From positions 22,833 to 86,832 of the IMG/VR virus record IMGVR_UViG_3300017963_000024: a stretch of 64,000 nucleotides of DNA, one strand, 5' to 3'. The DNA is from a virus. The translations under genes were made by a program, and so were the position numbers. Below, piece by piece: positions 5,375-36,093 of the stretch (the stretch's first letter is position 1; the number at the start of each line of letters is the position of its first letter). The notes below the pieces were generated by a model that worked only from the letters and a program-made list of their open reading frames with translations, was not told where the DNA came from and ran no database searches.

Positions 5375-5778
5375 GTAGAGGAAGATTTGAATTTTTCATC
5401 TGCTTAGGACAAAACGATTACCACTTCATGTTCTTTGCAGCACGGGTGATGCTGAACGATTCGGAGACAGGCGAGAATGTTCGCTGGTGTCGTTACATGG
5501 GCTGCCAAGTATCTGTAGACAATCATCCCATTGAACCGATACTGGCGCGGGTTTATCTGAGTGACAAAGACAAATGGGATACCCTCACCGGGCGAAGACG
5601 CGCTTTGGAACGTGCTCTCCAAATGTCGATGGTCGATAGGGAGGAGCGCATCAAAGTTTGGAATCGCTTCAACGAGCAACCAGAGATCAAGAAGCTGGTG
5701 GCTAGGGCTGCTGCAAAGTCGAAGAGTGAACGGGAGTGGGCTGCTTACTATGCTAAGTATCCCAAGCGATGCCGATGA
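5371..5778 (+). CDS. hypothetical phage protein
   Basis: RBS AAGGAGGAGCGAA-ATG; translational coupling. Confidence 0.65.
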   Translation: MSRGRFEFFICLGQNDYHFMFFAARVMLNDSETGENVRWCRYMGCQVSVDNHPIEPILARVYLSDKDKWDTLTGRRRALERALQMSMVDREERIKVWNRFNEQPEIKKLVARAAAKSKSEREWAAYYAKYPKRCR

Positions 5779-6284
5779 CCGTCGAGGAGTGTCAGGACTT
5801 TCTCCCGCTTTGGCACGGCAAAGGACTAAAGCTTGCACCAAAGGTTGAAGCGGTTACTGATTGGCTTCTCAGTCAGTATCAACCAAGAAATCGGGAATCT
5901 CTTCCTCCTGATATCGCTAAGGTGATGAAGGATTTTGGTGGACCGATCAAGGAATGCTTCCACACGACGCAGACGCTCGTGGCGAGCTTGGACAGAGCAC
6001 AGTACGTCGAAGGCTTTGTATTCAACTGTGCGATCATTCCCATCGAACACGCTTGGATCGAAGTAGACGGGTACGTTGTCGAACTGACTTTACGGTCAGA
6101 CCCGGAAAGAAAGGGTGAAGCGGTTATCACTCCTGACCCGGAGTGGATCTACATAGGAATTCCTATGGGTACTTCGTTTGTTTTGCATACGATGTTGGAG
6201 CGGAAGTTCACTGGCCCACTGAAGTATGTACTAGCAGCGAAGGCTCTTGGGTATCCAGAGGGAGAGTATCATGCTTGCTTTTGA
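5775..6284 (+). CDS. hypothetical protein, possible transglutaminase/papain-like fold
   Basis: ECF...YVEG...PIEHAWIE pattern (Cys...His-Trp). Confidence 0.5.
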   Translation: MTVEECQDFLPLWHGKGLKLAPKVEAVTDWLLSQYQPRNRESLPPDIAKVMKDFGGPIKECFHTTQTLVASLDRAQYVEGFVFNCAIIPIEHAWIEVDGYVVELTLRSDPERKGEAVITPDPEWIYIGIPMGTSFVLHTMLERKFTGPLKYVLAAKALGYPEGEYHACF

Positions 6285-8154
6285 GTTTCTGGAATTGGAA
6301 AACTTCATGTGCTTCCAATCCCCCGTGAAGATACCGCTACGGGATCAGGGTTTGGTTGTCATCAAAGGTGACAACCAAGTCAGCAACGTTTCCGATGCGA
6401 ACGGAGTTGGAAAGACGGTGGTGGCCGCTGATGGTTTGGCATGGGTTCTATACGGACAAACCCTTCGGGGCCTCAAGGCAGATGCCGTCATCAATCGCTT
6501 CTCTGGAAAGAAGACGTGCAAAGGCAAGCTAACGTTCGAGAGTGATGGTGAGTTGTGGAGGATCGTCCGTGAGCGCCCGCATCGAATCTATGTCGTCAAT
6601 GGAAGCAATGAGGAATGGACGGGACCGGAAGCTGAAGAGGTCATCCAGCGAAAGATTGGCATTGGCTTCAAAACTTTCTGCAATGCCGTTGTGTTCGGTC
6701 AGGGTGCATTCGAGCGATTTGCCAAGGCCGATCAAGCAACGAAGCTTCGGATGTTCGATGAGATTCAAGGGGTGGACTTCAGAAAGATGAGGGAAGCCGC
6801 TGTTGCTCTCCGTTCCAAGATCGAGGCAGAGCAATCTATCGTTGAATCAAAGCTCCAATCGCTGCGAAGCACTGGAGTAGACCTTGCCGACGAGAAGGAA
6901 CAACTCGAAAGGGAACGAGACGACTTCAAAGCGGCGCAGAAAAAACGGCTGGCAGCGCGTCGTAAGGCGGAGGAAGAAGCGTTGGACGAATACCTCCGGG
7001 CCAAGGAAGCTTTCGAGGAGTTCAAGGCAGAACAGGCTAAATTACCGGAATTACAGCGGAAAAAGGCAAAGCTTGAGAAGGCTGCTGAGATTCTGGACGA
7101 GATGAGAGACGAACTAAACTCCGCAGAGTCCGAGAAGCGGGTTATCGACACGATCATTGCCAACGAGTTGAAAAGCTTGGAAAAGCTTGTGGCAGAAGGA
7201 GTTTGTCCTACCTGCCGCCGGGAGGTGCTCGATAGGGGTGATGTGAATGTCGTGACGGAGGCTTTCGAGCGTGAGGTCGCACCCTCCATTGAAGCTCAGA
7301 AGGAAGCTGAGAAGACTATCACTAGGTGTGTAAAAGCTTTGAACAAGGCTCAAGCGAGGTACGACAAGGCTGTTGCCGACAGTGGGGGTGTGACTTCAAT
7401 CGAGATCGCCCGCTTAGAGGCAAAGTACGATGACGATGCCGAGGACATCCGACGAAAACGTCTGAAGACCCTCAAGGCCGCTGCGGAGAAAGCACGCGAC
7501 GAGTACCAAAATACTGTAACAACTGATACTTGGGGCGGTGAGCAAGCTTTAGCTAGGATAGTAGAGAAGCAACTGAAGGTTGGCAAGGAACTCAAGAAGC
7601 GAGTGAAGGAAAACGATAAGCTTCAACTCAAGTACGACATGGCGGACTATTGGGTGGTTGCGTTTGGTGATCGTGGGATTCGCTCCCGATTCCTCATGTC
7701 TCAGGCCGACTTTCTCAATGCTCGACTGTTGCAGCATCTCGAAACGTTAGCGGGTAGCGAAGCCGAAGTGCTCCTCTCACCAGAGAGGACAACAGGAAAG
7801 GGGGCAACCAAGCAGCAATTCAACATTCAGACGAAGTGGAATTGGGGCGGAGAAACCTACGAATCAGAAAGTGGAGGTCAAGAACGTCGGGTAGACCTTG
7901 CAATCTTTCTGGCTCTTCAAGACTTGGCAGAGAAAACCTCCGCGTCCCCGTTTCCTCTCCGAATGTGGGACCAGCCAGAAGAGGGCTTGGATGCGACGGG
8001 GTTGGAGATGTTCGGTAGGTGGATGAAGGTCGAAGCTCGTCGCAGAGGAACAGGTTTTCTAATCACACACAATCCAATTTTGGCGGAGGCAGTACAGGCG
8101 GATCAGGAATGGACAGTGCAGCTAACAGAAGATGGAAGTCGCTTAGTGCTCTAA
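6271..8154 (+). CDS. Rad50/SbcC (gp46-like) ABC ATPase
   Basis: LENFMCF, NGVGKT Walker A, VVFGQG Q-loop, coiled coils with CPTC zinc hook, SGGQ signature, LITH H-loop. Confidence 0.92.
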   Translation: MLAFEFLELENFMCFQSPVKIPLRDQGLVVIKGDNQVSNVSDANGVGKTVVAADGLAWVLYGQTLRGLKADAVINRFSGKKTCKGKLTFESDGELWRIVRERPHRIYVVNGSNEEWTGPEAEEVIQRKIGIGFKTFCNAVVFGQGAFERFAKADQATKLRMFDEIQGVDFRKMREAAVALRSKIEAEQSIVESKLQSLRSTGVDLADEKEQLERERDDFKAAQKKRLAARRKAEEEALDEYLRAKEAFEEFKAEQAKLPELQRKKAKLEKAAEILDEMRDELNSAESEKRVIDTIIANELKSLEKLVAEGVCPTCRREVLDRGDVNVVTEAFEREVAPSIEAQKEAEKTITRCVKALNKAQARYDKAVADSGGVTSIEIARLEAKYDDDAEDIRRKRLKTLKAAAEKARDEYQNTVTTDTWGGEQALARIVEKQLKVGKELKKRVKENDKLQLKYDMADYWVVAFGDRGIRSRFLMSQADFLNARLLQHLETLAGSEAEVLLSPERTTGKGATKQQFNIQTKWNWGGETYESESGGQERRVDLAIFLALQDLAEKTSASPFPLRMWDQPEEGLDATGLEMFGRWMKVEARRRGTGFLITHNPILAEAVQADQEWTVQLTEDGSRLVL

Positions 8155-8621
8155 CAACAGACAGTACCATCGTCCAGCGAATGTCGAAAAAGATCAAGAA
8201 GGGACCCGGATGCTGGGAGTGGACTGGCTCAAAAACTTTGTGTGGCTACGGGCAAATTCGCTTTGAGGGAAGATTGGAATTGGCCCATCGTGTCATGTGG
8301 ATATTGGTAAAGCTAAAGCGTATTCCAAAAAAGCTTTGTGTGATGCATTCTTGTGACAATCCCGGTTGTGTTCGTCCTACACACCTAAAGCTTGGAACAC
8401 ACGCTGAGAACTCGCTAGATATGAAAGAGAAAGGAAGAAGTGCTGTAATTAGAGGAGGTGACAGCCCGCGAGCAAAGCTTTCTTGGGATGATGCGTATGA
8501 GATTAGGCGACTGTGCTATAATGGATTGGCAAATCAGAAGCAGCTTGCAGAGCGATACGGTGTTACACAGCCAACTATTTCTTACATTGTAAACAAGAAG
8601 CATTACGTGAGACAGACATAG
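8019..8621 (+). CDS. HNH homing endonuclease with C-terminal HTH (real start probably ATG 8181)
   Basis: CWEWTG...GYG...AHR...HSCDNPGCVRPTHL..GTHAEN; C-terminal LAERYGVTQPTIS HTH. Confidence 0.9.
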   Translation: MDEGRSSSQRNRFSNHTQSNFGGGSTGGSGMDSAANRRWKSLSALTTDSTIVQRMSKKIKKGPGCWEWTGSKTLCGYGQIRFEGRLELAHRVMWILVKLKRIPKKLCVMHSCDNPGCVRPTHLKLGTHAENSLDMKEKGRSAVIRGGDSPRAKLSWDDAYEIRRLCYNGLANQKQLAERYGVTQPTISYIVNKKHYVRQT

Positions 8622-8645
8622 AGTGGCTAAAGAAAGGAATGTACG

Positions 8646-9035
8646 ATGACAATGTTTGCTTTCGTAAGAGGAAGTCACAGGGCACATGAGATTGCGGAGG
8701 ACAAAGTTCACACCCGATGTGGACTCATCTTTGATGAGGTGCAGGATATTACCCCTTGTGCGGCGACCAAGTTTTGTAAGGAGTGCCCACGAGAGGATGC
8801 CGCTTTTCCACCCGAAGCTGATATTCCAGAAGAGGTCGAGGTGAAGGAGTCCTCCCGTCAAAACGAGATCGAACAGAAGCTCGCTGCTCTAGATTCTCTC
8901 TTCCCTAACAATCCGTACTTCTGGAACGCGGCTCTGATGCTGGCCTTTGCAGAACCTCACCGATACGATTTTCGTTGTGATACAGCCATTGCCTTCATCA
9001 ACGAGGCCCGGAGGATGCGAAAACTCAAAGGGTGA
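8646..9035 (+). CDS. hypothetical protein (His/Cys Zn-binding N-terminus)
   Basis: RBS AAAGGA; H..TRCG..CKEC pattern. Confidence 0.55.
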   Translation: MTMFAFVRGSHRAHEIAEDKVHTRCGLIFDEVQDITPCAATKFCKECPREDAAFPPEADIPEEVEVKESSRQNEIEQKLAALDSLFPNNPYFWNAALMLAFAEPHRYDFRCDTAIAFINEARRMRKLKG

Positions 9036-9061
9036 GAGGTCAAAGTTTTTTCTTTCAGCCC

Positions 9062-9090
9062 TAGACAGCCAAAGCTTGACTTGATAGAGT
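9062..9090 (+). promoter_or_regulatory. sigma70-like promoter with AAGCTT in spacer
   Basis: TAGACA-17 bp-TAGAGT. Confidence 0.5.
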
Positions 9091-9694
9091 GAGCACAATG
9101 GAACACAGGTCACGGAGAGCCAAGGGAAGGCGGCTGCAAGTGAAGGTTGCCGAAGCTCTAGCTCGTGAATACAGCTTGACGATTGAGGCTGCTCCGCCCA
9201 GCAAACCGGGGATCAGGAAGGGAGTCCGATACGTTCCAGAGGGTTCCAATCCTGATCTCCGGGTCCGCGTCGGGGGTCAGCCGGGTGAGGATGTTGCTTT
9301 GGTATCGAAGAAGGCTCAAGAGGCGTGTGCAATTGGTGGAGACAAGCTCTACATCGAGTGCAAAAATGCGGAGGCTTGGGACTTCGGAGCAAACTTTTGG
9401 AACAAAGGAGGAAGACTAGAGTTCATCATCAGAGCGTTGGAGCAATCAGAGAGAGGCTTGGAGAAAAGGAGGGGGTCTTGGATTCCTGTCGCTTTCTTCT
9501 CGAAGAACCACTGGCCGATCCTTGTGGCTTTCACAGCACGGGGAGGCGAGATCATTCGGATGAGGGAAGAGACTCCGATCTTGGTTGCATCGGGATTCAT
9601 CGTTGTAACCCTCCCCGCCTTTCTCAAAACTCTGGATGGGAGGAGTCTCAATGAAGACCAAAAAGAAAAAGGCATCCAGTGCCTCACCGACTAA
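9089..9694 (+). CDS. PD-(D/E)XK Holliday junction resolvase-like nuclease
   Basis: AKGRRLQ..VA..L, GEDV, YIECKN motifs. Confidence 0.75.
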   Translation: MSTMEHRSRRAKGRRLQVKVAEALAREYSLTIEAAPPSKPGIRKGVRYVPEGSNPDLRVRVGGQPGEDVALVSKKAQEACAIGGDKLYIECKNAEAWDFGANFWNKGGRLEFIIRALEQSERGLEKRRGSWIPVAFFSKNHWPILVAFTARGGEIIRMREETPILVASGFIVVTLPAFLKTLDGRSLNEDQKEKGIQCLTD

Positions 9695-9932
9695 GAGGCA
9701 ACCCCCGAAGAAGAGAGAAGTAGCGAAGGGATCAAGTCAGCCCAAGGGCAACTACTACGCACAGATCACTGATGAGAAGACAGGAGTTGAGCGGAAGGCC
9801 CAGTTCCAGTACGTCGAGGATCGAGATGTGTGGTTCCTTGCTTGGGGCATCAGAGACGCGCTGGAGACGAAGGACAAAAAGTACCTCCGTGAATGTATCA
9901 CGCTCCTCAAGAAGATTCCGGTGCTGCACTGA
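9651..9932 (+). CDS. Lys-rich hypothetical protein
   Basis: GGAGGAG RBS before ATG 9651. Confidence 0.55.
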   Translation: MKTKKKKASSASPTKRQPPKKREVAKGSSQPKGNYYAQITDEKTGVERKAQFQYVEDRDVWFLAWGIRDALETKDKKYLRECITLLKKIPVLH

Positions 9933-10088
9933 TGGAAACTTTGAGAGAATTGGTGAGGCTAATCGTGCGGGAGTCGGCTTGGTGGCTTGTCGTCCTCTTC
10001 TGTGCCTACCAGCTTGGTTACATGACTGCCGTGAATCGAATGAGGGGAGCGGTCTTGGAAGAGCAGATGGTGGATAGCGAGGTCTACA

Positions 10089-10643
10089 GTGGCAGTGTTC
10101 AAAAGGAAAAACCGGGCAAGTCTCTCTGCGAACCAAAGCGTTCAAGACCGATTTCTAGCCAAGGTCAGCAAAGAATCTAGGGAAGATGGTTGCTGGATTT
10201 GGACAGCGTCAATCCGAACGGATGGCTACGGTCAGTTTGGTTGGAAGGGGCGGATCATCGGTGCTCACAAGTTTTCGTATATGCTCTTCGTTGGTGACGT
10301 TCCCGATCCACTTGTGGTGTGCCACAGATGCGACAATCAACTCTGCGTGAACCCGGACCACCTGTTTCTCGATACTCAGTCAGAAAACGTTTGGGATATG
10401 CGGAGAAAAAATAGGAACTTCAGGGCGACGGGTAACATGAACGGCATGAGACGACGACCAGACCGCGTGGCGAAAGGAGAAAAGCATGGACAGGCCAAGC
10501 TGACAAGAGAGACTGTGAAGGCGATCAAGCGTTTTGCAAAGCTTGGGTGGAAGCCGAAGGAGATAGCGGATCACTTCGGAGTCGGCCCCTCAACTATTCG
10601 TGATGTCCTCACGGGTAAGACATGGAAAGGAGACACAGCATGA
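10089..10643 (+). CDS. HNH homing endonuclease with C-terminal HTH
   Basis: CWIWT...GYG...AHK...CHRCDNQLCVNPDHL..DTQSEN; IADHFGVGPSTI HTH. Confidence 0.9.
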   Translation: MAVFKRKNRASLSANQSVQDRFLAKVSKESREDGCWIWTASIRTDGYGQFGWKGRIIGAHKFSYMLFVGDVPDPLVVCHRCDNQLCVNPDHLFLDTQSENVWDMRRKNRNFRATGNMNGMRRRPDRVAKGEKHGQAKLTRETVKAIKRFAKLGWKPKEIADHFGVGPSTIRDVLTGKTWKGDTA

Positions 10644-11113
10644 AGATGAAAAAGCGAAAGAAGAAGATCGGACTGGTCAACGCACTTGGCGGTGGCTCGG
10701 ATAAGCCCAAGAAGAAAAAGAAGCAGGTCGAGGAAGCTGCCATCGAAGAGAAGCCCAAGAAGAAAAAGAAGCTGAAGAAGACGAAGAAGACGAAGAAGGG
10801 CAAGAAGGACCTCGCTGAACTGAAAGATAAGGTCAAGGCCGAACGTAAGAAGCCGAAGGGCCGCACCATTGAGTTTCTCGATCTGAAGGTGGAGTACGAT
10901 GTCGAGATTCCAGCCAAGGGCCGCCCGTCCTTGAAACGGATTCCGTTCGACAAGCTGAACAAGAAGAACGCTTCTTTCTTCATTCCGTTCGAGGAGATGG
11001 CTCCTTCACAGGTCAACTCTGCCGTGGGTCAGGAAAATCTCCGTGCCGAAGGGAAGCGCAAGTACATCTACCGTTCGGTCGAAGGTGGCTCACGAGTCTT
11101 CCGAATCGACTAG
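10640..11113 (+). CDS. Lys-rich putative DNA-binding protein
   Basis: RBS AAAGGAG; poly-K N-terminus and small globular C-terminal domain (IPFDKL...SFFIP...RVFRID). Confidence 0.6.
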   Translation: MKMKKRKKKIGLVNALGGGSDKPKKKKKQVEEAAIEEKPKKKKKLKKTKKTKKGKKDLAELKDKVKAERKKPKGRTIEFLDLKVEYDVEIPAKGRPSLKRIPFDKLNKKNASFFIPFEEMAPSQVNSAVGQENLRAEGKRKYIYRSVEGGSRVFRID

Positions 11114-11114
11114 A

Positions 11115-11339
11115 ATGGCTGGTGTTTTTTCGAGAGACTACGGCTCGCACGTTGCAAAGTTTGAGGACGTGCGGGCCACAGGGCAGACGATGGGGGGTGC
11201 TCTGATTTGTGAGATCAACGGCAAGTCGGAGTTCATCCCCCAAGGCTGTATTGACGACACCAGCGAGGTTTGGGAACCGGGGCACGAGGGGACGCTTGTG
11301 ATTTGGGAGAAGATCGCAATCGAAAAAGGTCTGGTGTAG
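11115..11339 (+). CDS. small hypothetical phage protein
   Basis: ATG right after the upstream stop; FIPQGCID...IAIEKGLV. Confidence 0.55.
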   Translation: MAGVFSRDYGSHVAKFEDVRATGQTMGGALICEINGKSEFIPQGCIDDTSEVWEPGHEGTLVIWEKIAIEKGLV

Positions 11340-11893
11340 AATGTGTTCCCATGAAGCTTGCGACGAAGAGGTGGTTGCTGGCGGCTCTTGACGACATTCA
11401 AAAGCTTTCAGATGAGTTTGCGAATGACCCACGGGGAGTCGCTGATGCGTTATGGGAAGTGGGCTTTGAGGTGGAACAGGAACTAGCTTCAATGGATGGG
11501 CTACTGCCCAACGAAAGGAGTGATAATGAAGACAAGGCGAGTAACGGTGACGATGGAGATCGAGACTGACATCCCTCTGAGTGATCTTCGCAAGAAGGCG
11601 AACTGGCATACTGATGTGTGCCGAAGAGGAGAGCGAGTAGCTGAACCTGTGGATGTGAAGCAAGTCACGGTTCAGGTCGCCGCCAACTGACAAGCTTCGG
11701 TGTACCTGCGGGCTAGGCCAGCACATTGTTTAACCGTGAATAGAATACAGGCACTCATCCTCGTTGTCAGCGCAAAGAGCACGAGTAGCCTTTTTTCTTT
11801 TCCCTTAGACGATGTCGTGCGAAGTGTCCGCAGGAAACGGGCCGGGTTGCTGGTCCCCGGCCCACCCTTTGCAGATTCACGAGAAGGGGCGGT

Positions 11894-12208
11894 ATGGAGG
11901 ATAGAGCTTTCAACAATGTCTGGTTACTGCCTGAACTCTGGAGAGCGTTAATCTCAGGTGTATGCTTTGCTGAGAACCAATCCAGCAATAGGCGGTATGA
12001 TTACTCCGGTCTACTCCAAGCTTTGCTTCTCCTCGATCAGATGCGGGAGGACGACGACATCATCGAGATTCGCCTACTCAAGCCAGATGAGATCGGACTG
12101 AATGGGGAGGACTTGGGGTTGAACACGGAAGCTGTGACCGAGGTGCTGAGAGAAAAGCGGGTCATCAACGTAAGACAACTTAGGCAGTTGCGGAGGAGGG
12201 CTGGATGA
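11894..12208 (+). CDS. hypothetical protein
   Basis: ORF with upstream purine-rich RBS. Confidence 0.5.
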   Translation: MEDRAFNNVWLLPELWRALISGVCFAENQSSNRRYDYSGLLQALLLLDQMREDDDIIEIRLLKPDEIGLNGEDLGLNTEAVTEVLREKRVINVRQLRQLRRRAG

Positions 12209-12310
12209 GGACGTTCAACGTTTACGTTACATCACCCAATGGGGCAGGGCGGTTTTTCTCCGTTCCTGCCCCGTTCACTTTGAAGGGCAGAGCTAGAAAG
12301 GGGGAGCGAA

Positions 12311-12490
12311 ATGAGAGTCAATCTAGGAACCATCGACATCAGCGACAAAGCACGAAAGGCGATCACACGGCACCTGACCGATGGTAGGCGGGGCAGCTTG
12401 GCTGGCCGTGCCGAAGTCAAGGAAATCTTCCAGAAGGCGGGGAAGAAAGCCATCAAGAAGATGGTGAAGGAGTGGAGTGGGAGCGACTGA
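12311..12490 (+). CDS. small basic protein (59 aa, below ORF-track cutoff), paralog of 14221..14472
   Basis: GGGGGAGCGAA-ATG; MRVNLGTIDISDKARKAITRHL...LAGRAEVKEIF. Confidence 0.55.
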   Translation: MRVNLGTIDISDKARKAITRHLTDGRRGSLAGRAEVKEIFQKAGKKAIKKMVKEWSGSD

Positions 12491-12897
12491 TGCAAACGTT
12501 CCTCCCGTATGCCGACTTCGATCAGACTGCAAAGTGTTTGGACTTTCGTAGACTCGGCAAGCAGCGTGTTGAGGCAATGCAGATTCTCAAAGCATTGTGC
12601 TTCCCCGGCACGAGTCGGTGGGAACATCATCCCGCAGTGAAGATGTGGAGTGGTTGTGAAGAAGCCTTGGCCCTCTACTACAACACCATTGTACGTGAGT
12701 GGGTGCGGAGGGGATACAGAAACACGATGCCTTCCCTGTTGCTGGAGGACATCGTTCTTCCCTCTTGGCTGGGGAGCGAAAGTTTTCACGCAAGCCACCG
12801 ATCAAACTTGCTGCGGAAAGACCCTGAGTGGTACGGACAGTTTGGATGGGATGAGCCTTCGGACTTGCCGTACATCTGGCCGAAGGGGGAGCGATGA
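12490..12897 (+). CDS. pyrimidine-dimer DNA glycosylase/endonuclease V-like (MSMEG_6728 family)
   Basis: MQTFLPY.DF...LD.RRLGKQRVEA.QIL, HPAVKMW.G, HASHRSNLLRKDP. Confidence 0.85.
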   Translation: MQTFLPYADFDQTAKCLDFRRLGKQRVEAMQILKALCFPGTSRWEHHPAVKMWSGCEEALALYYNTIVREWVRRGYRNTMPSLLLEDIVLPSWLGSESFHASHRSNLLRKDPEWYGQFGWDEPSDLPYIWPKGER

Positions 12898-13379
12898 GAG
12901 CAATCACTCAAGAGGAGTTCGACAAACTTGAGTGCAACCAGTGTGGGGATTGTTGTGAACGTTTCTACCTTCCCCTCCCAACAAAACTTTGGTCTGGTTG
13001 TCAGTGGCCGCTCGATCACTACAACTGGTCCGAAGAAGAAAAGGTAGAAGCCCGGAAGATGGCGATGTGGGTGTCTTTCGGAGTGGAGCCACTGGATGAA
13101 CCGTTCACCGAGCGAAATAGGATGTCCTGCAAGTGCAACTGGTTCAGACGGATCACTCCAGACTACGGTGTCTGTACTCGCTACGAGGATCGCCCAAAAA
13201 CGTGTTCAAGCTTTCCTCTCCACTGTACCATTGGGGATGAATTTCCCCGCTGCGTCTACAAAGTTTTCTCAGAAGAGGAGCAAACCAGTGACGACGAAGG
13301 CGAGGAGAAATTCGAGAAAGACAGAGAAGAAGCTGAAGTCACGCAAGAACCGATTACTGTCGAAGGAGGAGCGAAATGA
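12894..13379 (+). CDS. YkgJ-family Cys-cluster (CxxCxxCC) Zn/Fe-chelating protein
   Basis: CNQCGDCC ... CTRYEDRPKTCSSFP. Confidence 0.75.
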   Translation: MRAITQEEFDKLECNQCGDCCERFYLPLPTKLWSGCQWPLDHYNWSEEEKVEARKMAMWVSFGVEPLDEPFTERNRMSCKCNWFRRITPDYGVCTRYEDRPKTCSSFPLHCTIGDEFPRCVYKVFSEEEQTSDDEGEEKFEKDREEAEVTQEPITVEGGAK

Positions 13380-13828
13380 ATGTGTTGGTGTGTGGATCGA
13401 GGACATGGACCGACCGGGAGAGAATGAAGAGCGTGCTTGAAAAACTCCGTGAAGAGTTCGAGGGGGAAATCCACCTCATCGTGGGGGGAGCGCGTGGAGC
13501 AGACGAGAGGGCTTGTCTGCTGGCAGAGGAACTTGGGTACACCTACGAGAACTACTACGCACAGTGGGACCGCTACGGAAGGTCTGCTGGCCCGATCAGG
13601 AACAAGAAGATGGTGGACATCCTCGTTGAGGAGGGCGGCAAGCTTGTCCTTGCCTTCTTCGGCCCCGGCCCCTGCAAGGGAACGTGGAACACCGTCAAGT
13701 ACGCCCGAACGAAGGAACTCACCGTCAGGGGGTTCCCGCAGGAAGGAATCTCCGTTGGCTTCAGCACAGAGGAGGACCATGATGGGAAAGGAAGTCGAGA
13801 AGTATCGACCAGTGTGGAAGGCAAGTAG
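13376..13828 (+). CDS. SLOG superfamily (DUF2493/YspA-like) protein
   Basis: VLVCGSR, GGARGAD, W..YG.SAGPIRN..M, KGT. Confidence 0.85.
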   Translation: MNVLVCGSRTWTDRERMKSVLEKLREEFEGEIHLIVGGARGADERACLLAEELGYTYENYYAQWDRYGRSAGPIRNKKMVDILVEEGGKLVLAFFGPGPCKGTWNTVKYARTKELTVRGFPQEGISVGFSTEEDHDGKGSREVSTSVEGK

Positions 13829-14220
13829 TGCGGGAGGACTCCACTACTACGGAGCGTGGTTGAAAGCTTGGACCTTCGATGAGATGTGGCGGTGTGAGCA
13901 CAGGCACAGAACCAGAGAAGAAGCTCTGGCCTGTGCAATGAAGTGGAAGCCGGGAAAGGCGGATGGATGACGTACAAACTTTGGTGCTGCTGTGATGGAA
14001 GGTTCAAGTTGTGGTGGAGGCGAATCCAGAAAGTTTTAAAGGAAACCTACGGAGGAAAGAGGGGCTACCAAGTGGTCAGCGTCGAGGAGTCCGAAGTCCC
14101 TCTGGAAGTCTTCGACCGGAGAAGAAGACTGGCAGGATTCGCTGGCCGGGGTAGATGCTCGTTCTGTGGGAGCAGGGACCCCCGGTACGAAGTCAAGCTT
14201 GAAATAGAAAGGAGGAGCGA

Positions 14221-14472
14221 ATGAAGGTGACGTTCTCAATCGACGTGGACGACCGGGTCAGGAGGGCACTCCGCGCCTACCGAGGAAAGAGAGGGCTTGC
14301 CTCCCGTGAAGAGGTCAGGCATTTCTATATCAGCCACGGAGGAGCGGTCCTCGATGACGTGATGTGGGAATTTGAGAGGGGGGAGCGGTCTGATGAGGAA
14401 GAGGAGAGCGATAAAAAAGCAGAGGGGGGCGGGTCCTCCGATACCGTCAGCCCGCCAAGCCAGCATCTTTGA
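14221..14472 (+). CDS. small hypothetical protein
   Basis: RBS AAGGAGGAGCGA-ATG. Confidence 0.55.
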   Translation: MKVTFSIDVDDRVRRALRAYRGKRGLASREEVRHFYISHGGAVLDDVMWEFERGERSDEEEESDKKAEGGGSSDTVSPPSQHL

Positions 14473-14902
14473 AATCTACCGTGGAACCAACTCAGCCCTG
14501 ACCAATCTGGTAGCCTCAGAAAGAGATCCGATTTTCATCCCCGGCGGGGTAAAAGACTCCACCCCGCCAGCTTTCAAATCCCCGGAAAAGAGGCTCATGG
14601 CTGCAATCCTAGAAGCAGCCCTAGACGACCTCCGCAAGAAACCCACCTACCTATCCAGCCACACCCCCGACGAGAGACAGAGAAAGAACCGTCTAATTCG
14701 CTTGAAAAACAATGCGATAGACTGGTTCGAGGACGATGACGACACCTACGTCTTCTCCTTCCCCTCAGTCACACAAACGCTCTTCTCAGCCCACCCAGCT
14801 TCCATTCGAGAAGCCCTGAGAGCGTCCCACCTCCTTGAAAAAGAATCACCAGAAATCCCCCGTCAATCACCCAAGAGAATCAAAAAGCCCGCCCACAAGT
14901 AA
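14372..14902 (+). CDS. hypothetical protein with PEKRLM.A.LE.A motif (start uncertain)
   Basis: SPEKRLMAAILEAALDDL...AIDWF..DD.YVFSF..V pattern recognised from bacterial hypothetical proteins. Confidence 0.6.
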   Translation: MRGGSGLMRKRRAIKKQRGAGPPIPSARQASIFEIYRGTNSALTNLVASERDPIFIPGGVKDSTPPAFKSPEKRLMAAILEAALDDLRKKPTYLSSHTPDERQRKNRLIRLKNNAIDWFEDDDDTYVFSFPSVTQTLFSAHPASIREALRASHLLEKESPEIPRQSPKRIKKPAHK

Positions 14903-15120
14903 TTCCCCGCCTGTTATATGTAAGGGGTAGATTCAAACTACCCCTCCCACCTGATTCAAAAACACCCTCAAAGATTTCAGGACAGAAAATCCAGCAAAAA
15001 CAACGGGAAGCGATTCCACACAACCCAAAACAAACGGGGAGAGTTGTGAAAAAGCGGCCCTACCGATTCCAAAAACCTTCAGGGGGACACATCGCTGAAA
15101 AAGGGGGTAATCTCGCCTTC

Positions 15121-15171
15121 AAAAGGTCCTAGAGGGGGTAATCCACCCTACAAAAGGTCCTAGAGGGGGTA
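15121..15171. repeat. direct repeat AAAAGGTCCTAGAGGGGGTA x2
   Basis: Copies at 15121-15140 and 15152-15171. Confidence 0.85.
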
Positions 15172-15218
15172 CACGCTTGAATGAAGTATCAATACTCGCT
15201 CGTGTGAGCACTGCGGTT

Positions 15219-15397
15219 GCAATACTCGTGAGTATTCGCACCGCTCACGGAGCGGCGTTCCTTATATAGACAGAAACCCATAGCAGCCCTCCTACGGTGC
15301 GAATACTCGTGAGTATTCGTGCCCTCCTACGGTGCGAATACTCGTGAGTATTCGTGCCCTCCTACGGTGCGAATACTCGTGAGTATTCGTGCCCTCC
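15219..15397. repeat. tandem 35-bp repeat x3 with palindromic core (plus one inverted partial copy); candidate origin iterons/operators
   Basis: GCCCTCCTACGGTGCGAATACTCGTGAGTATTCGT at 15286, 15321, 15356; core also at about 15219-15243. Confidence 0.9.
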
Positions 15398-20857: not shown

Positions 20858-21059
20858 GATGCTGAAGACGATGCTGGGCGGACTGGTGAAGGAGGGGCTG
20901 AAACAAACGAGTGAGTTCAGGAATCGCCCCTCCGGGTTGTATGACAGGAACGAGGAAGAATTGACGTTCGAGGAGGTTTTCAAACACCTCCTCGATGCGC
21001 TAAGAAAAGGATAATCTGCGAGCGGTGAGACGGATACCTTCCCCCGTCACCCGTGTCGA

Positions 21060-21090
21060 GGGGCAGTCTTTCGGGACTGCCCCTTTTTTT
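21060..21090 (+). terminator. intrinsic terminator ending the early cassette array
   Basis: GGGGCAGTC-loop-GACTGCCCC followed by T7. Confidence 0.9.
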
Positions 21091-21433
21091 GTCCTCGTCG
21101 CTCTGTGGACGAGCGGTGCATTTGACTTGCTAGCGGCGCGCCTTACGCTTCGTGGAGGTCGTTCAGTCAAAGCTTTCCTGAAAACGCGCGGTGCAGCTTT
21201 TAACGGCAGACTCGACGCTTTTGGACCCCCCCCGAACAGAAGTTCGTACCCCCTGACCGACCCCCTGACCGGGGGTGTCAAAGCTTTGACGGTGCCGTGA
21301 AGTGTCACATGGTCAAAGTTTGTCACTTTCCAAAAGTCAAAGCTTTTCGACCACTTAGGGGGGAAGGTTCAAGGAAATTCGACCTTTGTGTCAAAGCTTT
21401 GACGGTAGTGCGAACAAACGTTCACGATAGGAC

Positions 21434-21494
21434 GTCAAGGACCGTGCCAAAAGCTTTGAACCTTCAAAGCTTTGACGTTGGCACGGTCCTAGCT
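21434..21494. promoter_or_regulatory. divergent pair of sigma54-like -24/-12 boxes forming an inverted repeat
   Basis: TGGCACGGTCCTAGCT (+, 21479) and TGGCACGGTCCTTGAC (-, 21449), flanking two AAAGCTTT. Confidence 0.55.
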
Positions 21495-21778
21495 ACCATT
21501 CCGAACCATGATCGGTTCACGTTCCCCCCCTTCGGTTCCCCTTCGGTCAAGCCTTCCCCTTGGAAGGTGAGGAACCAAAGGGGATTCGGCACCTTCCAAG
21601 GTGAGCAGTCAGGGATTGCAGAATAATCGTGGCTCCTGATTGGCCGAACGAAGGTTCGGTCACGTCACTCCAGTTCTGATGATCGAAACCTTGGAAGGGG
21701 TGACAGGGAAGGGGAACCCTTCCTACCGAATAAGAACCCAAAAGCTTTGAACCTACAACGATCAAGGGAAGGTGAGAA

Positions 21779-22831
21779 ATGGCTACTGACAAAACTGAGT
21801 TTGTTACTCCTGAAGGGTTTGTTTTCTACGTTCCTACCTCTGATGCCGATGTAATCATGCAACAGAGGAAGGAAGGCCGTCGAACCCTTCTCGAAATTCT
21901 AGAAGGAAGGGGATATGAGCCTTCCGAAGTGACCGAACCTTCCGAACCCTTGGAAGTGGTCAAAGGCTCCGAGCCTGAACTTCCGATTGAACTTACAGAC
22001 GTGGTCAACGAACCGAAGGTTCAAACGAAGCCACTTCGGAGAACAATCGTTGACCGTTCCCGTGAGTCAAAGCTTGAAGAACTGACAAGCCTTCTGACTC
22101 AACAGAACGAAGCTTTGAAAGCTCAGTTGCTTGAACTGAGGAAAGAAGCCAACGGGAACGAACCTGAAGCCAACGAAGCCACTTCGGAAACGGTCAACGG
22201 TCCTGTCACTCCTGAAATGGTCGAAGCCTTTTTCGTTTCCATTCTGGCAACAATCGGAAGGGATGTTAAAGCCTTCGTTTCCACGTTCGTTCGGTTCACC
22301 TTCAAGCTTGTTTCCTTCACCTTCAAGCTTGCCACTTCCCCCCTTTGGGTTCCTATCAAGTGGCTTGTCCGGTTCGGATTGTACCTGAACGGAGTTTCCC
22401 CTTCGGGAACGGTCAAGCCTTCAGGAACCGTCAAGGCTTCGGTTCCTTCCGAACCTTCCGAACCTTCGGGAACGAAGGGAACGAAGGGAACGAAGGGAAC
22501 GAAGGGAACGAAGGCAAAGTCAAAGCTTATCCCTGAAGCCACTTCCTACAAGGCTTTGACCGAACGAATCCGAACGAACTTTGGTTACGGTGCCGACCGT
22601 TGGCTTTGTGGCTGGATTGCAAACGAAGGTGAGGAACCGGGAGACGTTCCCGAACTTTCCAAAAGCCCTAGGATTGCAGACACGTTGGCTTTCCTTCATG
22701 CAATCAAGGAACGTGTTTTCAACGGGAACGAAGCTTTGACCGTCAAGTGGTACAACGAACACGTTCGGCAAGACAACGAATGGAAGGTTCGGAAGGGGAA
22801 GGCTTCAGCTAACGTCTACATTTCAGAGTGA
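21779..22831 (+). CDS. hypothetical protein with coiled coil, hydrophobic segment and EPS/GTK repeats
   Basis: 350-aa ORF, RBS GGGAAGGTGAG; 9-bp repeat GGAACGAAG x5 at 22469-22513. Confidence 0.75.
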   Translation: MATDKTEFVTPEGFVFYVPTSDADVIMQQRKEGRRTLLEILEGRGYEPSEVTEPSEPLEVVKGSEPELPIELTDVVNEPKVQTKPLRRTIVDRSRESKLEELTSLLTQQNEALKAQLLELRKEANGNEPEANEATSETVNGPVTPEMVEAFFVSILATIGRDVKAFVSTFVRFTFKLVSFTFKLATSPLWVPIKWLVRFGLYLNGVSPSGTVKPSGTVKASVPSEPSEPSGTKGTKGTKGTKGTKAKSKLIPEATSYKALTERIRTNFGYGADRWLCGWIANEGEEPGDVPELSKSPRIADTLAFLHAIKERVFNGNEALTVKWYNEHVRQDNEWKVRKGKASANVYISE

Positions 22832-22889
22832 AGCCAACGAAGGGGGGAACGTTCCTCAGTTCCCCCCTTTCCTGAAGGGAAGGTGAGGA

Positions 22890-23060
22890 ATGAACATCAG
22901 GAAGGCAAGGGGAAAGCTTTACAGGCTTGCAAGGGTACTCGGTGACGTTCAGGCAATGCTAGACGGTCCCGAAGCCTACGTGAAGAGGCTTGCAAGGAAA
23001 CAAGCCTTGAAGGCTTCGGGAAAGTCGATCAACCATGCAATCAGAAGGAAGGGAAGGTGA
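22890..23060 (+). CDS. small basic protein (56 aa, below ORF-track cutoff)
   Basis: RBS GGGAAGGTGAGGA-ATG; MNIRKARGKLYRLARVLGDVQAMLDGPEAYVKRLARK. Confidence 0.75.
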   Translation: MNIRKARGKLYRLARVLGDVQAMLDGPEAYVKRLARKQALKASGKSINHAIRRKGR

Positions 23061-23064
23061 GGAA

Positions 23065-23364
23065 ATGGAAATGAACTTCAGAAGGAACTACAACGATCAA
23101 AGCTTGATAGTTCCCCTTTGTGGACTGTGCAACGAACGGACAACAATCAACGAATTAACCGTGGCTACAGTGCAAAGGGAAGGTGAGGAACCGAAGGTGA
23201 AGGCCGTGTGCTTCGATTGCTTAGGAGCCTACTCCGACTCTGAAGTGTCGAAGATCACTCGGACGTCAATCGTGAAGGTTCGACCTTTTCCCGTTCGGGA
23301 AACTGAAGGGGGGGAACTGAAGGAACGTTCCTTCGGTAGAGTTCACCGATTCAACGTGTACTGA
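23065..23364 (+). CDS. small Zn-finger protein
   Basis: Same RBS; CGLC...CFDC. Confidence 0.7.
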   Translation: MEMNFRRNYNDQSLIVPLCGLCNERTTINELTVATVQREGEEPKVKAVCFDCLGAYSDSEVSKITRTSIVKVRPFPVRETEGGELKERSFGRVHRFNVY

Positions 23365-23380
23365 CAAAGCTTGAACAACG

Positions 23381-23420
23381 AAGGGGGGGAAGGGGGGAAC
23401 GTTCCCCTTCCCCCCTTTTT
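23381..23420 (+). terminator. intrinsic terminator
   Basis: G-rich/C-rich hairpin around GAACGTTC followed by a T tract. Confidence 0.8.
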
Positions 23421-23465
23421 CTGGCTTCGTTCCTTCAATCAAACGTCATTCTAAAAGCTTTGATA

Positions 23466-23651
23466 TGCAACGAACGTGCCACTTCCGAACCGTCAAAGCT
23501 TTGACACGTTCGGGAACCGTTGGCACAAAGCTTGCAAGCCAACAGACGTTTGGCCTAGTCAAACGATTCCCCTTCAAGGAACGTGCCAAGTGGCTTCCCC
23601 TTGCCAAGTAAAGCTTTGACAAAAAGTGGCACCGTAGCAACGAACGTGCCA
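23466..23651. promoter_or_regulatory. cluster of sigma54 -24/-12 consensus boxes on both strands
   Basis: TGGCAC-N5-TTGCW perfect at 23466-23481 (-), 23521-23536 (+), 23636-23651 (-); near match 23573-23588 (-). Confidence 0.65.
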
Positions 23652-24057
23652 AGGCCAGTAACAAAATTTGACCATGCACGGCTAGCACGAAGCCATTTTT
23701 GGCTGACCGACCCCTGACCGGGGACCCCTCTCCGCACGAATTTTCGTTCGTACCCCCTCTTTAGGACCCCCTCGAAAATATAGCGGAAAAATCTATCAAA
23801 ACTTGGAAATTTGGCGGAAAAATTTATCAAGTTTTGAGGACTGCCTTAATGCGAGCGGGGGGAAATGGTGAAATGTGTGAATTGAAAAAAGTTTCGTTGT
23901 GCAGTGGAAGATTTCCGCTCGGCGTGCTAGGGTCCCATGTGTAAGCTGGCAGTAGGTCGAATAGCTAGAAAGGAGTATGCACGATGGAAGATGCCGAAGT
24001 GGTCGAACTGGTCATGGCCCTGTCCCGCGAGATCGGGTGGAGGAACGAGGAGGAGTG

Positions 24058-33375: not shown

Positions 33376-33652
33376 CGACGTTGATTTCAAGTTTACTTGG
33401 AAGATTCTCTCTTGGCCTGAACAGGAAGAAGGCTTTCTAACAAAGCTTTTTGATCCTGATCGCCTTGGATTTCCTCTCGATCCTGACGAGAAGATTACTT
33501 CCGAGCGTATTAGAAGAGCCTTGGAATCTCCTCAATTCCGAGATGAGTTCAGACGGAACTTGAATGAGATTGTGGAGGAAACGGCTAGAAAGATATTTCG
33601 AGAAGCTTTGGAAAAGGGTTTTACGGCCATTGAGCTAGAGCCAACACCATGA
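33365..33652 (+). CDS. hypothetical protein
   Basis: Coupled between TerS and TerL. Confidence 0.55.
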   Translation: MATNDVDFKFTWKILSWPEQEEGFLTKLFDPDRLGFPLDPDEKITSERIRRALESPQFRDEFRRNLNEIVEETARKIFREALEKGFTAIELEPTP

Positions 33653-36093
33653 GTGAAGTAGCCTTTGATCCGCTTTCGGTAATCGACGACAGCACTCCTT
33701 GTGCTTTTAGTCGGTTTCCTCAGACGGACGACGAACTTTGGGAGTTCGTGGCAACGGTTTGGGGCGTTGAGATCCCAAGGAAAAAGATTTGCCCCCAGCA
33801 CTGTGCTCCGTTCGATGCTTTTGCCGATGCCTTCTTCTGTAAAGCGGAAAACGCGATCTGGCTCGCAAGCCGTGGGTTGGGTGGCAAGAGTTTCCTTCTT
33901 GCTACGCTGGGCCTCACTGAAGCAGTTTGTCTTGGGGCGACGGCAACGGTCCTTGGTGGATCAGGCGCACAATCACAAAACGTTCACAGGTATATGCAAG
34001 ATATGTGGAGTTACCCTGCCGCGCCACGTCAATTGCTTGCGGAGGACCCCACGAAAATGAGGACCGTTCTTAAGAACGGTGCCTATGTTCAAGCTTTGCT
34101 GGCTTCATCCACCAGTGTTCGTGGCCCTCACCCTGTAAGGCTTCGGTGCGACGAGTGCCTCACTGGAGATTCACTCGTTCTAATGGCTGATGGTTCTAAG
34201 AAACGTTTGGACAGGGTAGAACCCTCAGACAAGGTGGTTACTTTCTATAGGGGTTGTTTATGTGAGGGTGTTGTGTTAGCCTCTGAGTATAAGGGTGTCA
34301 GAGAGACACTAAAGCTTAGAACGGAGGCTGGTAATGAAATCGTCTGCACAAAAGAACATCCGGTCCTCGGAGAAAGTGGTTGGCGAGAAGCGTCTACCTT
34401 TGCAGCGGGGGATTACATCTGGCTATCCGATAACTCTGCCGACGTACTCCCACCGGGACGTGAAGAAGTGTCTCGACTGTGGGAAAGCTTTGAAGCACAA
34501 GATGGCTCGGCTGGTGACGGGGTACTGCAAAGAGTGTCTAACGGAGAAGGTCAAGAAACCGAAGTTCTGCGAAGAATGCGGGACTCAGGTTGGAAGCCAA
34601 TCGAAGCTTTGTCGGCCCTGTTGCTTCAAACGAAGGAAGAAGTCAAAAGCTTTTTGCAAGGATTGTGGAACCGAATTGCGTTTAGCTTCTACGAAGCGTT
34701 GTCGCCCCTGCCACCTCAAGTTCATGTCCTCGGAACGCATGGTTTCGAGGATGTCGGCTTCCAGAGCTACGGCTATGAAAAACAGGGAGGAGAGATCGAG
34801 AGCCGAAACACAGGCGGCGGAGCTTCTTCGACTGTTCAAGATAAACTTTCGAGAGCAAGTTCCAGCCTCCCGTTATATTCTGGACTTCGTTCTGGACGAC
34901 TACAAGGTTGTGATCGAGGTACACGGGGCGTATTGGCACGACAGGCCCGCTGCGAAGAAAAGGGATCAAGCAAAAAAGAAAGCTTTGGAGAAGAGGGGTT
35001 GGCAGGTTCTTTTCTGGCGAACCGAAAAGCTCCACCTGTGGTGGCTCGATCTCGTGTCGCCTCCATTCAACAAGCTGGGAGAAGTGGAGTCTATGATATA
35101 AGAGTTTCTCCTGGCAAGAGCTTCGTCGCTAACGGTATCATTGTTCATAACTGTGACGAGATGAAGCTCGACATTCTCGATGCGGCTCTAGGCCAGCCGA
35201 TGTCGAAGGACGGAATTCCCGCTCAAACAGTAATGTCCTCGACGCACCACTATCCTGACGGTACGGTCACAGAGCTTCTGAATCGAGCCAAAGAACGTGG
35301 GATGCCCGTCTATAACTGGTGCTACCGGGAAAGTATGGCCGGGGGCTGGCTTTCCCCTGCCGATGTGGAAGCCGCCCGTGCTCGTGTTCCACTGGCAATG
35401 TGGGATGTTGAGTTTGAGCTTCAGGAGCCGAGTCCTGAAGGACGCGCCATCCAGCCACAAGCTGTAGAGTGGACTTTCGATCAAAGCTTGGGATACTTTG
35501 AAGGCCAAGCGAATGAAAAGATCGTGCTTGAACCCCCACAGGAGGGGGCTAAGTACGTGACCGGGGCAGATTGGGCGAAGGAGAGTGACTGGACAGTCAT
35601 CATTACGTTCCGAATTGACGTTACTCCTTGGAAGCTTGTCATGTTCGAGCGGCTTGGCCGACGCCCTTGGCCGGAAATGGTTGAAAAATTCAATGACAGG
35701 CTTACTCGCTACCGAGGTGTCGGCGTCCACGATGCAACAGGGCTGGGAAATGTTGTGGATGACTTCGTGACCAACAGAGCCGCCAGAGGGGAAGTTTTGG
35801 TGGGAAAGAATAGGGCTGAAATTTTCTCTGAATACGTTGCAGCACTGGAAAACCGTGAAGTGGTTGCACCGAGAATTGACTTCATGTATGCAGAGCACAA
35901 GTATTGCACGGTGGATGATTTGTGGGGGAGTGGGCACCCGCCTGATTCCTTTGTTGCTGGTGCGCTGGCATGGCGAGGCAAACGTTTCAGCCAGTCTACG
36001 GGAACCGTAAGGTCCATTGTGTCCCACCCGAAGTGGAAAGAGCGGTCGGACGAGAGGATCGCACGTCGGCTTGAACCTTGGAAGTTCGACTAG
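33649..36093 (+). CDS. terL: terminase large subunit containing an intein
   Basis: ASRGLGGKS Walker A; RG.H...LRCDE(CDEM) Walker B; C-terminal RNase H-like GADWA, DATGLG, DSFVA. Confidence 0.92.
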   Translation: MSEVAFDPLSVIDDSTPCAFSRFPQTDDELWEFVATVWGVEIPRKKICPQHCAPFDAFADAFFCKAENAIWLASRGLGGKSFLLATLGLTEAVCLGATATVLGGSGAQSQNVHRYMQDMWSYPAAPRQLLAEDPTKMRTVLKNGAYVQALLASSTSVRGPHPVRLRCDECLTGDSLVLMADGSKKRLDRVEPSDKVVTFYRGCLCEGVVLASEYKGVRETLKLRTEAGNEIVCTKEHPVLGESGWREASTFAAGDYIWLSDNSADVLPPGREEVSRLWESFEAQDGSAGDGVLQRVSNGEGQETEVLRRMRDSGWKPIEALSALLLQTKEEVKSFLQGLWNRIAFSFYEALSPLPPQVHVLGTHGFEDVGFQSYGYEKQGGEIESRNTGGGASSTVQDKLSRASSSLPLYSGLRSGRLQGCDRGTRGVLARQARCEEKGSSKKESFGEEGLAGSFLANRKAPPVVARSRVASIQQAGRSGVYDIRVSPGKSFVANGIIVHNCDEMKLDILDAALGQPMSKDGIPAQTVMSSTHHYPDGTVTELLNRAKERGMPVYNWCYRESMAGGWLSPADVEAARARVPLAMWDVEFELQEPSPEGRAIQPQAVEWTFDQSLGYFEGQANEKIVLEPPQEGAKYVTGADWAKESDWTVIITFRIDVTPWKLVMFERLGRRPWPEMVEKFNDRLTRYRGVGVHDATGLGNVVDDFVTNRAARGEVLVGKNRAEIFSEYVAALENREVVAPRIDFMYAEHKYCTVDDLWGSGHPPDSFVAGALAWRGKRFSQSTGTVRSIVSHPKWKERSDERIARRLEPWKFD
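34156..35151 (+). mobile_element. intein (332 aa, TerL residues 170-501) inserted in the Walker B region
   Basis: N-terminal CLTGDSLVLMADG, block B CTKEHPV, block F VYDIRV, C-terminal IIVHN followed by extein Cys. Confidence 0.93.
34334..35101 (+). CDS. Zn-finger repeat plus DUF559/Vsr-like endonuclease nested in the +1 frame of the intein
   Basis: GGAGG at 34323-34327 before ATG; six CxxC pairs; FREQ...YILDF...VIEVHGAYWH...RD..K...L...GW.VL. Confidence 0.85.
   Translation: MKSSAQKNIRSSEKVVGEKRLPLQRGITSGYPITLPTYSHRDVKKCLDCGKALKHKMARLVTGYCKECLTEKVKKPKFCEECGTQVGSQSKLCRPCCFKRRKKSKAFCKDCGTELRLASTKRCRPCHLKFMSSERMVSRMSASRATAMKNREERSRAETQAAELLRLFKINFREQVPASRYILDFVLDDYKVVIEVHGAYWHDRPAAKKRDQAKKKALEKRGWQVLFWRTEKLHLWWLDLVSPPFNKLGEVESMI

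Follow-up and report, generated by a model that had tools for sequence, protein, structure and literature searches.

In the genome of an uncultured tailed phage, one operon was found to lie in a stretch that is free of the trinucleotide GCG in both orientations (GCG/CGC), while the same word is evenly tiled over the other 84 kb. The sequence is the record IMGVR_UViG_3300017963_000024 (86,832 bases; genome 86.7 kb, referred to as G000), of which 64,000 nucleotides constitute the window; positions given below are window positions unless stated otherwise, and the GCG-free stretch is referred to as the island. Computation on the sequence showed that the word is missing from the island, that selection keeps it out and that it is evenly spaced elsewhere, and gave the layout of the operon. 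We put at roughly 40% the probability that GCG in double-stranded DNA is read or marked by a putative system from which the island operon is exempt.

By script count, 2323 bp separate the sites at 21410 and 23733, with neither GCG nor CGC in between, where 29.4 GCG and 25.4 CGC (about 55 sites) are expected from the rest of the genome; the 2.3-kb island free of both words that the initial annotation had described is therefore real. The second-largest gap measures 235 bp, both in the window (787 GCG and 678 CGC in total) and in the whole 86,832-base record. Over 21217-23732 the island's own dinucleotides predict 48.2 sites, and one is seen, at 21410. A depletion scan of all reverse-complement pairs of 2- to 5-mers gave the GCG/CGC gap as the top outlier, with a log10 p of about -19.6 against -5.5 for the next independent one; among the trinucleotides of the island the next most depleted is TAT (4 against 13.6 expected). 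The CG dinucleotide is near normal (139 against 147 expected) and ACG and CGT are together in excess by about 41 copies. The edges of the island are sharp: GCG/CGC density peaks in its flanks, where it reaches 32-38 sites per kb (left) and 40 (right) against a genome mean of about 23, and the word starts again at 23733. The narrow word set that had also been claimed was borne out by the counts, with 1172 distinct 6-mers against 1681±65 in windows of the same size, 54 copies of GAAC against 13.6 expected and 36 of CCTT against 7.7. As separate observations, AGAT/ATCT is nearly missing from 21014-23252 (1 and 0 copies against 12.0 and 9.2 expected), and GCCC/GGGC, CAGC/GCTG, CTGC/GCAG, CATC/GATG, CGAG/CTCG and GAGA/TCTC are depleted on both strands of the island.

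Selection at the nucleotide level keeps the island free of GCG, and codon usage and chance are excluded as the cause. The three open reading frames (ORFs) of the island contain neither a GCG nor a CGC codon. Permutation of their synonymous codons gave 13.1±2.9 sites, formed at codon junctions, with a minimum of 4 in 5000 permutations against the 0 observed, so that the void does not stem from codon bias. The non-coding flanks are purged as well (1 site against 7.3 expected and 0 against 10.6). Of the 7548 possible single substitutions in the island, 660 (8.7%) would create GCG or CGC, a share equal to that of three control regions, and a divergence of 5% was computed to bring about 11 new sites. 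Since the internal repeat families of the island are merely 65-94% identical and 8.7% of substitutions make sites, selection must maintain the void. Codon permutation and substitution counts thus both support the earlier description of a purged, discrete island.

The spacing of the word over the 84 kb outside the island was assessed by synonymous-codon permutation within 71 ORFs, with the other trinucleotide pairs as controls. GCG/CGC sites number 1968 against 2268±28 expected, and their gaps vary less, with a coefficient of variation (CV) of 0.887 where 1.127±0.022 is expected. Gaps of 5-40 bp are rarer than expected (639 against 932), those of 60-100 bp are commoner (483 against 322) and those of at least 150 bp are again rarer (24 against 53.7); the largest is 235 bp, where a mean of 346 bp is expected and the minimum in 300 permutations was 249 bp. 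The histogram of gaps is level from 10 to about 90 bp and drops beyond. Bases more than 50 bp from any site amount to 4.5%, against 9.0±0.6% expected and 12.2% with matched site numbers. GCG/CGC is the only one of the 32 trinucleotide pairs to be evenly tiled (z score of the CV -12.1; next -2.9), and after merging of sites less than 10 bp apart its observed/expected CV was 0.696, the other 31 pairs ranging from 0.947 to 1.215. The deficit of long gaps is visible only when GCG and CGC are pooled, CGC alone not being evenly spaced (z -1.1); the word is therefore one of double-stranded DNA, in either orientation. Among its extensions, GCGG/CCGC and AGCG/CGCT are kept in number and regularly spaced, and GCGC and CGCG are depleted. 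From the tiling outside and the void inside it follows that GCG is kept elsewhere and forbidden in the island.

The relative G002 served as a negative control: its GAT/ATC pair gave a similar z, but solely from a purge of GATC, the rest of the histogram being as expected, and the signal was rejected as an analogue of the tiling. In G002 (L054-L057; 63,957 bases) GATC has 0 copies against 271 expected from synonymous permutation, and 46 of the 64 hexamer palindromes are without a copy. Also rejected as analogues were a CTA/TAG gap in G002, which is a single 975-aa ORF, and a 770-bp GCG gap in the relative G005, which lies inside a tail gene. A Chi-like role of AGCGG was discarded, this word being neither enriched (132 against 137) nor evenly spaced.

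Judging from the site counts, site avoidance is a general habit of this phage genome. Of the 64 hexamer palindromes, 40 do not occur in the 86.7 kb and 14 occur one to three times; CCWGG has two sites, and GAGACC, GGGCTC and GCAGGC are missing. Ordinary levels are reached or exceeded by AAATTT, CAATTG, GAATTC, TTGCAA, AACGTT, GCTAGC, TAGCTA and AAGCTT only. AAGCTT is present in 212 copies against about 19 expected, with roughly random spacing (CV 0.90), in all three codon phases (66/64/23) and with 59 copies outside ORFs; its density is highest in the island, at 19 copies in 2.5 kb. Purging of hexamer palindromes is less complete in the island than elsewhere: making up 2.9% of the sequence, it holds four of the 23 copies of rare palindromes, among them the genome's only copies of GACGTC (two) and CCTAGG (one).

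A purely harmful site would be depleted and scattered; here the sites are sparse with full coverage and forbidden in one operon, and a reader of GCG is therefore favoured. We infer the existence of this reader, its kind and the effect of exemption as follows. GCG, in either orientation on double-stranded DNA, would be a functional word read by a putative activity, the candidates being a covalent mark, a DNA-binding coat or an enzyme acting within about 50 bp of its site. Selection would hold the number of sites low and yet keep nearly every chromosomal base near one. The island, as the single stretch wholly free of the word, would place its operon out of the reader's reach, and the operon may then be expressed from 'unlabelled' DNA on a schedule unlike that of the rest of the genome. 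The fuller version, in which the whole chromosome is labelled by a three-letter word at distances of at most about 100 bp with minimal copies, and one operon is left unlabelled and treated differently by the reading factor, is offered tentatively. If true, a short word would serve to set one group of genes apart from all others of the phage, as regards either timing or self-recognition. That a new kind of system is at hand is in our view less likely than not, though far from negligible.

Several results weigh against a GCG reader. Six-frame searches of the genome for PF01702, PF00145, PF01555, PF00303 and PF02384, covering the TGT/DpdA, C5 methylase, N4/N6 methylase, N6_Mtase and thymidylate-synthase-like families, found none of the five, with controls positive in 9-14 of 14 reference genomes. 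The highest GCG density lies in the early promoter array, presumably expressed first, so that 'unlabelled for early expression' is no general rule in this genome. Five of the eight GCG-containing hexamer palindromes are at 0 copies, GCGC and CGCG being depleted too, and a GCG mark does not seem to shield overlapping restriction sites. Tiling of GCG/CGC is absent from all five related contigs tested, and no relative carries the island. The argument rests on one genome and on statistics at the sequence level, and the gene calls used in the permutation were crude longest-ORF calls.

Restriction-site (palindrome) avoidance in phage genomes is a known concept (PMC6286503). The present phage is an extreme case of it, depletion being found on both strands (GCG/CGC 0 against about 55; 40 of 64 palindromes at 0), but such avoidance predicts depletion with random scatter, whereas the remaining GCG sites are evenly tiled (z -12). 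To our knowledge, GCG is not a recognition site. Sequence-specific hypermodification is a second precedent: phage CAjan carries dPreQ0 at GA and GGC (PMC7544227), so that there, too, a word of two or three nucleotides defines where phage DNA is marked. Unlike the CAjan type, the present genome holds no DpdA/TGT or other tested modification gene, and the abstract of PMC7544227 reports neither motif-free islands nor even spacing. A local lack of a defence target in early-entering DNA is already known (T5, Autographiviridae); what appears to be new is a complete void of a three-nucleotide word under selection in a genome whose remaining 84 kb that word tiles evenly. One trinucleotide is required over most of the chromosome and not tolerated in the island, a pairing that plain restriction avoidance cannot explain and that implies a putative reader of very short DNA words. 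Full-text searches, subscription journals being outside their coverage, returned no phage for which a void of a short word had been described along with its even tiling. If the reader is a DNA mark or a coat, the genome would provide a natural experiment with about 1970 sites, one exempt operon and sharp edges, which would help to find the enzyme and to learn what exemption gains. The spacing test, with synonymous permutation and other trinucleotides as controls, can be applied to any phage genome and could show how common such architectures are.

The features of the island and its flanks are collected in Table 1. By its sequence, the island is an autonomous, self-contained operon with its own predicted promoter, ribosome-binding sequence and terminator. 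It stands as a unit between the early promoter array and later genes, as the initial annotation had placed it, and the terminator claimed there corresponds to a terminator-like hairpin. The early array ends in a terminator at 21058-21085, and the left flank of the island begins after this terminator and the C8 run. Unique direct repeats are found at both island edges: exact matches to CCCCTGACCG occur in the window only at 21250, 21262 and 23711, and those to GTTCGTACCCCCT only at 21242 and 23746.

Table 1. Features of the GCG-free island and its flanks (window positions)
Position	Strand	Feature	Remarks
21226-21233		C8 run, left edge of GCG-poor zone	Longest G/C homopolymer of the genome and its sole G/C run of at least 8
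21234-21275	+	Left boundary block	GAACAGAAGTTC, then GTTCGTACCCCCT, then CCCCTGACCG twice
21277-21290, 21390-21403		14-bp palindrome GTCAAAGCTTTGAC, two copies	10-bp core CAAAGCTTTG
21410-21412	+	Sole GCG between 21216 and 23733	Script count
21438-21499	+	Near-perfect inverted repeat, 53 nt (21438-21490)	Overlaps a weak sigma-70-like promoter
21555-21604	+	Leader hairpin pairing one GGAAGGTGAGGAA motif copy (inverted repeat I10)	z -2.43; 4 of 200 shuffles fold equally well
21779-22831	+	ORF1, 350 aa
22459-22517	+	Tandem 9-bp repeat GGGAACGAA, five copies (families D1, D2)	Encodes (GTK)n in ORF1; Logan contigs break here
22890-23060	+	ORF2, 56 aa, very basic	Coding score +0.143 in frame
23065-23364	+	ORF3, 99 aa (109 aa if start 23035)	Two CxxC pairs
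23384-23420		Predicted operon terminator: G/C-run hairpin, then T run	Hairpin 23392-23411 (consensus scan)
23467-23651		Non-coding right flank	Third GTCAAAGCTTTGAC (23492-23505) and GCAACGAACGTGCCA repeats
23703-23758	+	Right boundary block	CTGACCGACCCCTGACCGGGG, then GTTCGTACCCCCT

The core CAAAGCTTTG has nine copies in the genome, five in sigma-70-type promoters and four in the island flanks; in the consensus early promoters it sits in the spacers. Being common to the flanks and the early promoters, it ties the island to the phage's own regulation. The 53-nt inverted repeat was calculated to fold at -24 kcal/mol as single-stranded DNA (z -7.85; none of 200 shuffles folded equally well), and the weak promoter overlapping it (21472-21499) has, by consensus scan, TTGACG, a 16-nt spacer and TACCAT, agreeing with the consensus at 9 of 12 positions. 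An 18-nt block, AAGGGAAGGTGAG(A/G)AA, at 21764, 22875 and 23049, precedes all three gene starts, with one further copy inside ORF3. GGAGG, common elsewhere in the genome, is absent from the island (0 against 7.1 expected), where AGGTGA takes its place as the ribosome-binding sequence; the change that had been reported before the three genes is thus confirmed. The sequence GAAGGTGAGGAACC(A/G) recurs away from gene starts at 21563, 22625 and 23179, encoding EGEEP both times in ORF1 and ORF3. The right flank (23467-23651) holds three of the four exact genome matches to TGGCAC-N5-TTGC, presumably sigma-54-type -24 GG / -12 GC promoter boxes, within 185 bp (one on the + strand and two on the - strand); the fourth is at 47096, and a near-match occupies 21480-21493 in the left flank. 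GAAC-N4-GTTC boxes, which we take to resemble the Gram-positive LexA box, occur three times in the left non-coding flank (21234-21657) and once elsewhere in the genome; about 0.7 are expected from the island's own word counts, which makes this a weak signal.

Among the alternatives to a GCG reader, the one that survives best, although we consider it unlikely, is that the island enters the cell first. As in T5, it would have been cleared of the very short sequence that a host nuclease attacks, and its pioneer genes would be expressed before the rest enters or is protected. The genome-wide avoidance of sites (40 of 64 hexamer palindromes at 0 copies, two CCWGG sites) agrees with this, as does the consideration that a three-nucleotide target can be purged only locally. 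A motif-free early-injected region suffices for escape in Autographiviridae (PMC12455610) and T5 (10.1101/866236). In Murciavirus (Autographiviridae), facing the Mme2I Type I system, it is such a locally motif-free region that decides the outcome (PMC12455610); there, as here, the motif is locally absent and present elsewhere in the genome, but the Murciavirus motif is a Type I site with few copies per genome and the leading end is known, whereas here a three-nucleotide word has about 1970 copies and is positively spaced elsewhere. The codon bias of the island is the strongest in the genome, ORF1 having the lowest effective number of codons (Nc) of 48 ORFs, and the first-acting genes in the leading regions of conjugative plasmids are similarly more codon-adapted, with no consistent motif depletion found there (PMC13478746); the bias of the island was measured within the phage genome.

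The even spacing of GCG elsewhere is not expected of a purely harmful site and argues against first entry. The early promoters that match the consensus are located not in the island but where GCG is densest; a general protective function of pioneer genes would render the genome-wide hexamer purge needless, and the island tolerates hexamer palindromes found nowhere else. The first-step-transfer DNA of T5/BF23 lies within a terminal repeat of about 10 kb and carries paired DnaA boxes in its injection stop region, whereas here the depth is not doubled and the flanks of the island contain no DnaA box (five window matches to TTWTNCACA, none in 21000-24000). No protein related to the T5 pre-early gene products A1, A2 and dmp was found among the island ORFs (PHROG/Pfam, E <= 0.01). 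For T5, we know of no report of word tiling over the rest of the genome.

The termini were approached through Logan contigs from two runs (X1 and X2, possibly one data set), which as contigs cannot show read ends. The initial annotation had proposed that the island is a terminal repeat of about 2.4 kb or the first-injected segment. The metagenomic depth of the island, 35.3 and 32.4, is not doubled relative to the 34.4 and 32.4 of the flanks, so that a collapsed terminal repeat is not supported, contig means not being final on this point. Precisely at the C8 run that borders the island on the left, one contig stops and another starts, with only these eight bases in common; X1 has no loose ends there, and X2 has one extra base. 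This dead end would suit a first-entering terminus. However, no repeat was found at the run, and a C8/C9 length polymorphism, which the extra base in X2 fits, predicts the same contig break; the run was therefore not counted as a terminus.

Phage morons are autonomous promoter-gene-terminator units of deviating composition between gene blocks, and the island resembles them in being, by prediction, an autonomous unit, and in a composition unlike that of its neighbours. It could accordingly be a cassette acquired from a phage with GCG-free DNA, its composition inherited and not yet adapted, an explanation that we also hold to be improbable. Its sharp edges with unique direct repeats on both sides, the promoter and terminator predicted by consensus scans, the differing ribosome-binding sequence, the three genes without relatives and the less complete purge of rare palindromes (four of 23 copies in 2.9% of the genome) point this way. 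Against it, no donor or related DNA was found in the phage collection or among viral contigs, the CAAAGCTTTG core is common with the early promoters, the genome's enrichment of AAGCTT extends into the island (19 copies in 2.5 kb), and its codon preferences run in the same direction as those of the genome, only stronger. Nor does a moron account for a complete word void under selection, or for the operator-like core that the island has in common with the early promoters. Acquisition would leave the lack of GCG to be explained in the donor instead, and it is compatible with the GCG reader.

Immunity at the RNA level, in which transcripts of the island would escape a sequence-specific endoribonuclease or an RNA-modifying defence, is very unlikely. 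The lack of GGAGG and the shift to AGGTGA would fit it: T4 RegB is a nuclease that cuts Shine-Dalgarno sequences, and transcripts free of GGAGG would be spared. Enzymes acting at short motifs in mRNA are known (10.1101/2024.02.24.581662). It is contradicted by a coding strand without GCG and CGC alike, a void reaching about 250-310 bp past the predicted transcription unit on each side, several other 4-mers depleted on both strands, and tiling elsewhere that works only with the orientations pooled.

An origin without selection, from young low-complexity DNA grown out of duplicated GCG-free seeds or from context-specific mutational scrubbing, is more improbable still. Low complexity and many short internal repeats would agree with it, as would the excess of about 41 copies of ACG/CGT, close to the roughly 55 missing GCG/CGC, but the repeat families are only 65-94% identical where 5% divergence would already bring about 11 sites, codon junctions are arranged so as to avoid the word, the ORFs carry a coding signal, and we know of no process confined to a 2.5-kb unit with sharp edges. 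The least probable explanation is that GCG is the trinucleotide of the phage's DnaG-like primase and that the island, unprimed, stays single-stranded on the lagging side while its inverted repeats fold: primases recognize trinucleotides, genes for a DnaG-like primase and a DnaB-like helicase are present in the phage and a strong hairpin overlaps the island promoter, but priming is strand-specific, whereas CGC alone gives z -1.1 and the long-gap deficit needs both orientations, and Okazaki priming would manage with sites much farther apart than the 100 bp or less seen here.

The proteins of the island were characterized by coding statistics and database searches. ORF1 has a coding score of +0.337 in frame against -0.11 and -0.28 out of frame, its 351 codons exceed the longest frame in all 1000 Markov-2 simulations (maximum 301), and its Nc is 44.2 (median of the 48 ORFs 57.1). 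An N-terminal domain of 50 residues is predicted with confidence; the protein also has a coiled coil, hydrophobic helices and low-complexity repeats, its C-terminal part being helical, and the AlphaFold2 model has a mean predicted local distance difference test score of 51. ORF3, with its paired CxxC motifs, is probably a zinc ribbon.

A Foldseek search of the ORF1 model against the PDB gave no match at E <= 0.001, and no relative of ORF1 was found by tblastn in phages or viral contigs, in 5.8 billion clusters or in 1.84 billion representatives. Among the same 5.8 billion clusters ORF3 matches only itself; in the ESM Atlas it matches solely unnamed small proteins, and ORF1 has no usable match there. 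The three ORFs gave no PHROG or Pfam match at E <= 0.01, bar one weak, stretch-less match to a tail fiber; ORF2 has no family match in Pfam, PHROGs or PADLOC, and PADLOC returned nothing useful for the island proteins. For the anti-defence role that the initial annotation had given to the three proteins, these family, fold and relative searches yielded no evidence. At the DNA level, a search of the phage collection with the island gave no match, a 19-nt island palindrome had none in viral contigs, and the island is absent from 47 loci and five contigs with portal identities of 26-55%, none of them close enough for synteny. No Rfam family exceeded its threshold, no tRNA was found, and AA/TT periodicity of 10-11 bp is absent; the duplex stability of the island is average (about the 60th percentile).

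The phage DNA comes from sediment and seawater metagenomes. The first 124 bases of the record are repeated at its end, so that the assembly closes into a circle. Tailed-phage genes for a portal, a protease and a terminase large subunit (TerL) are present, together with replication and recombination genes for SbcCD, RecA, a single-strand binding protein, DnaB-like and DnaG-like proteins, a family A polymerase and a ParB-DUF4417 protein. Viral contigs hold nothing more than 55% identical to the portal, and identity to any named phage is below 30%. TerL (33649-36093; 814 aa) contains an intein splicing domain; its matches were to the intein only, and none of its relatives was informative on termini. 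The ParB-DUF4417 protein and two other proteins of no assigned function are without a relative of solved structure. A 35-bp unit in three tandem copies (15290-15395) lies directly 5' of the first early promoter, where the Logan contigs break, and another break is found near G000 position 21,024. Contig depth steps at the 35-bp repeat from 24.5 (2498-15315) to 34.4 (15368 onward), which together with the breaks suggests two co-occurring variants that differ in the replication/recombination module.

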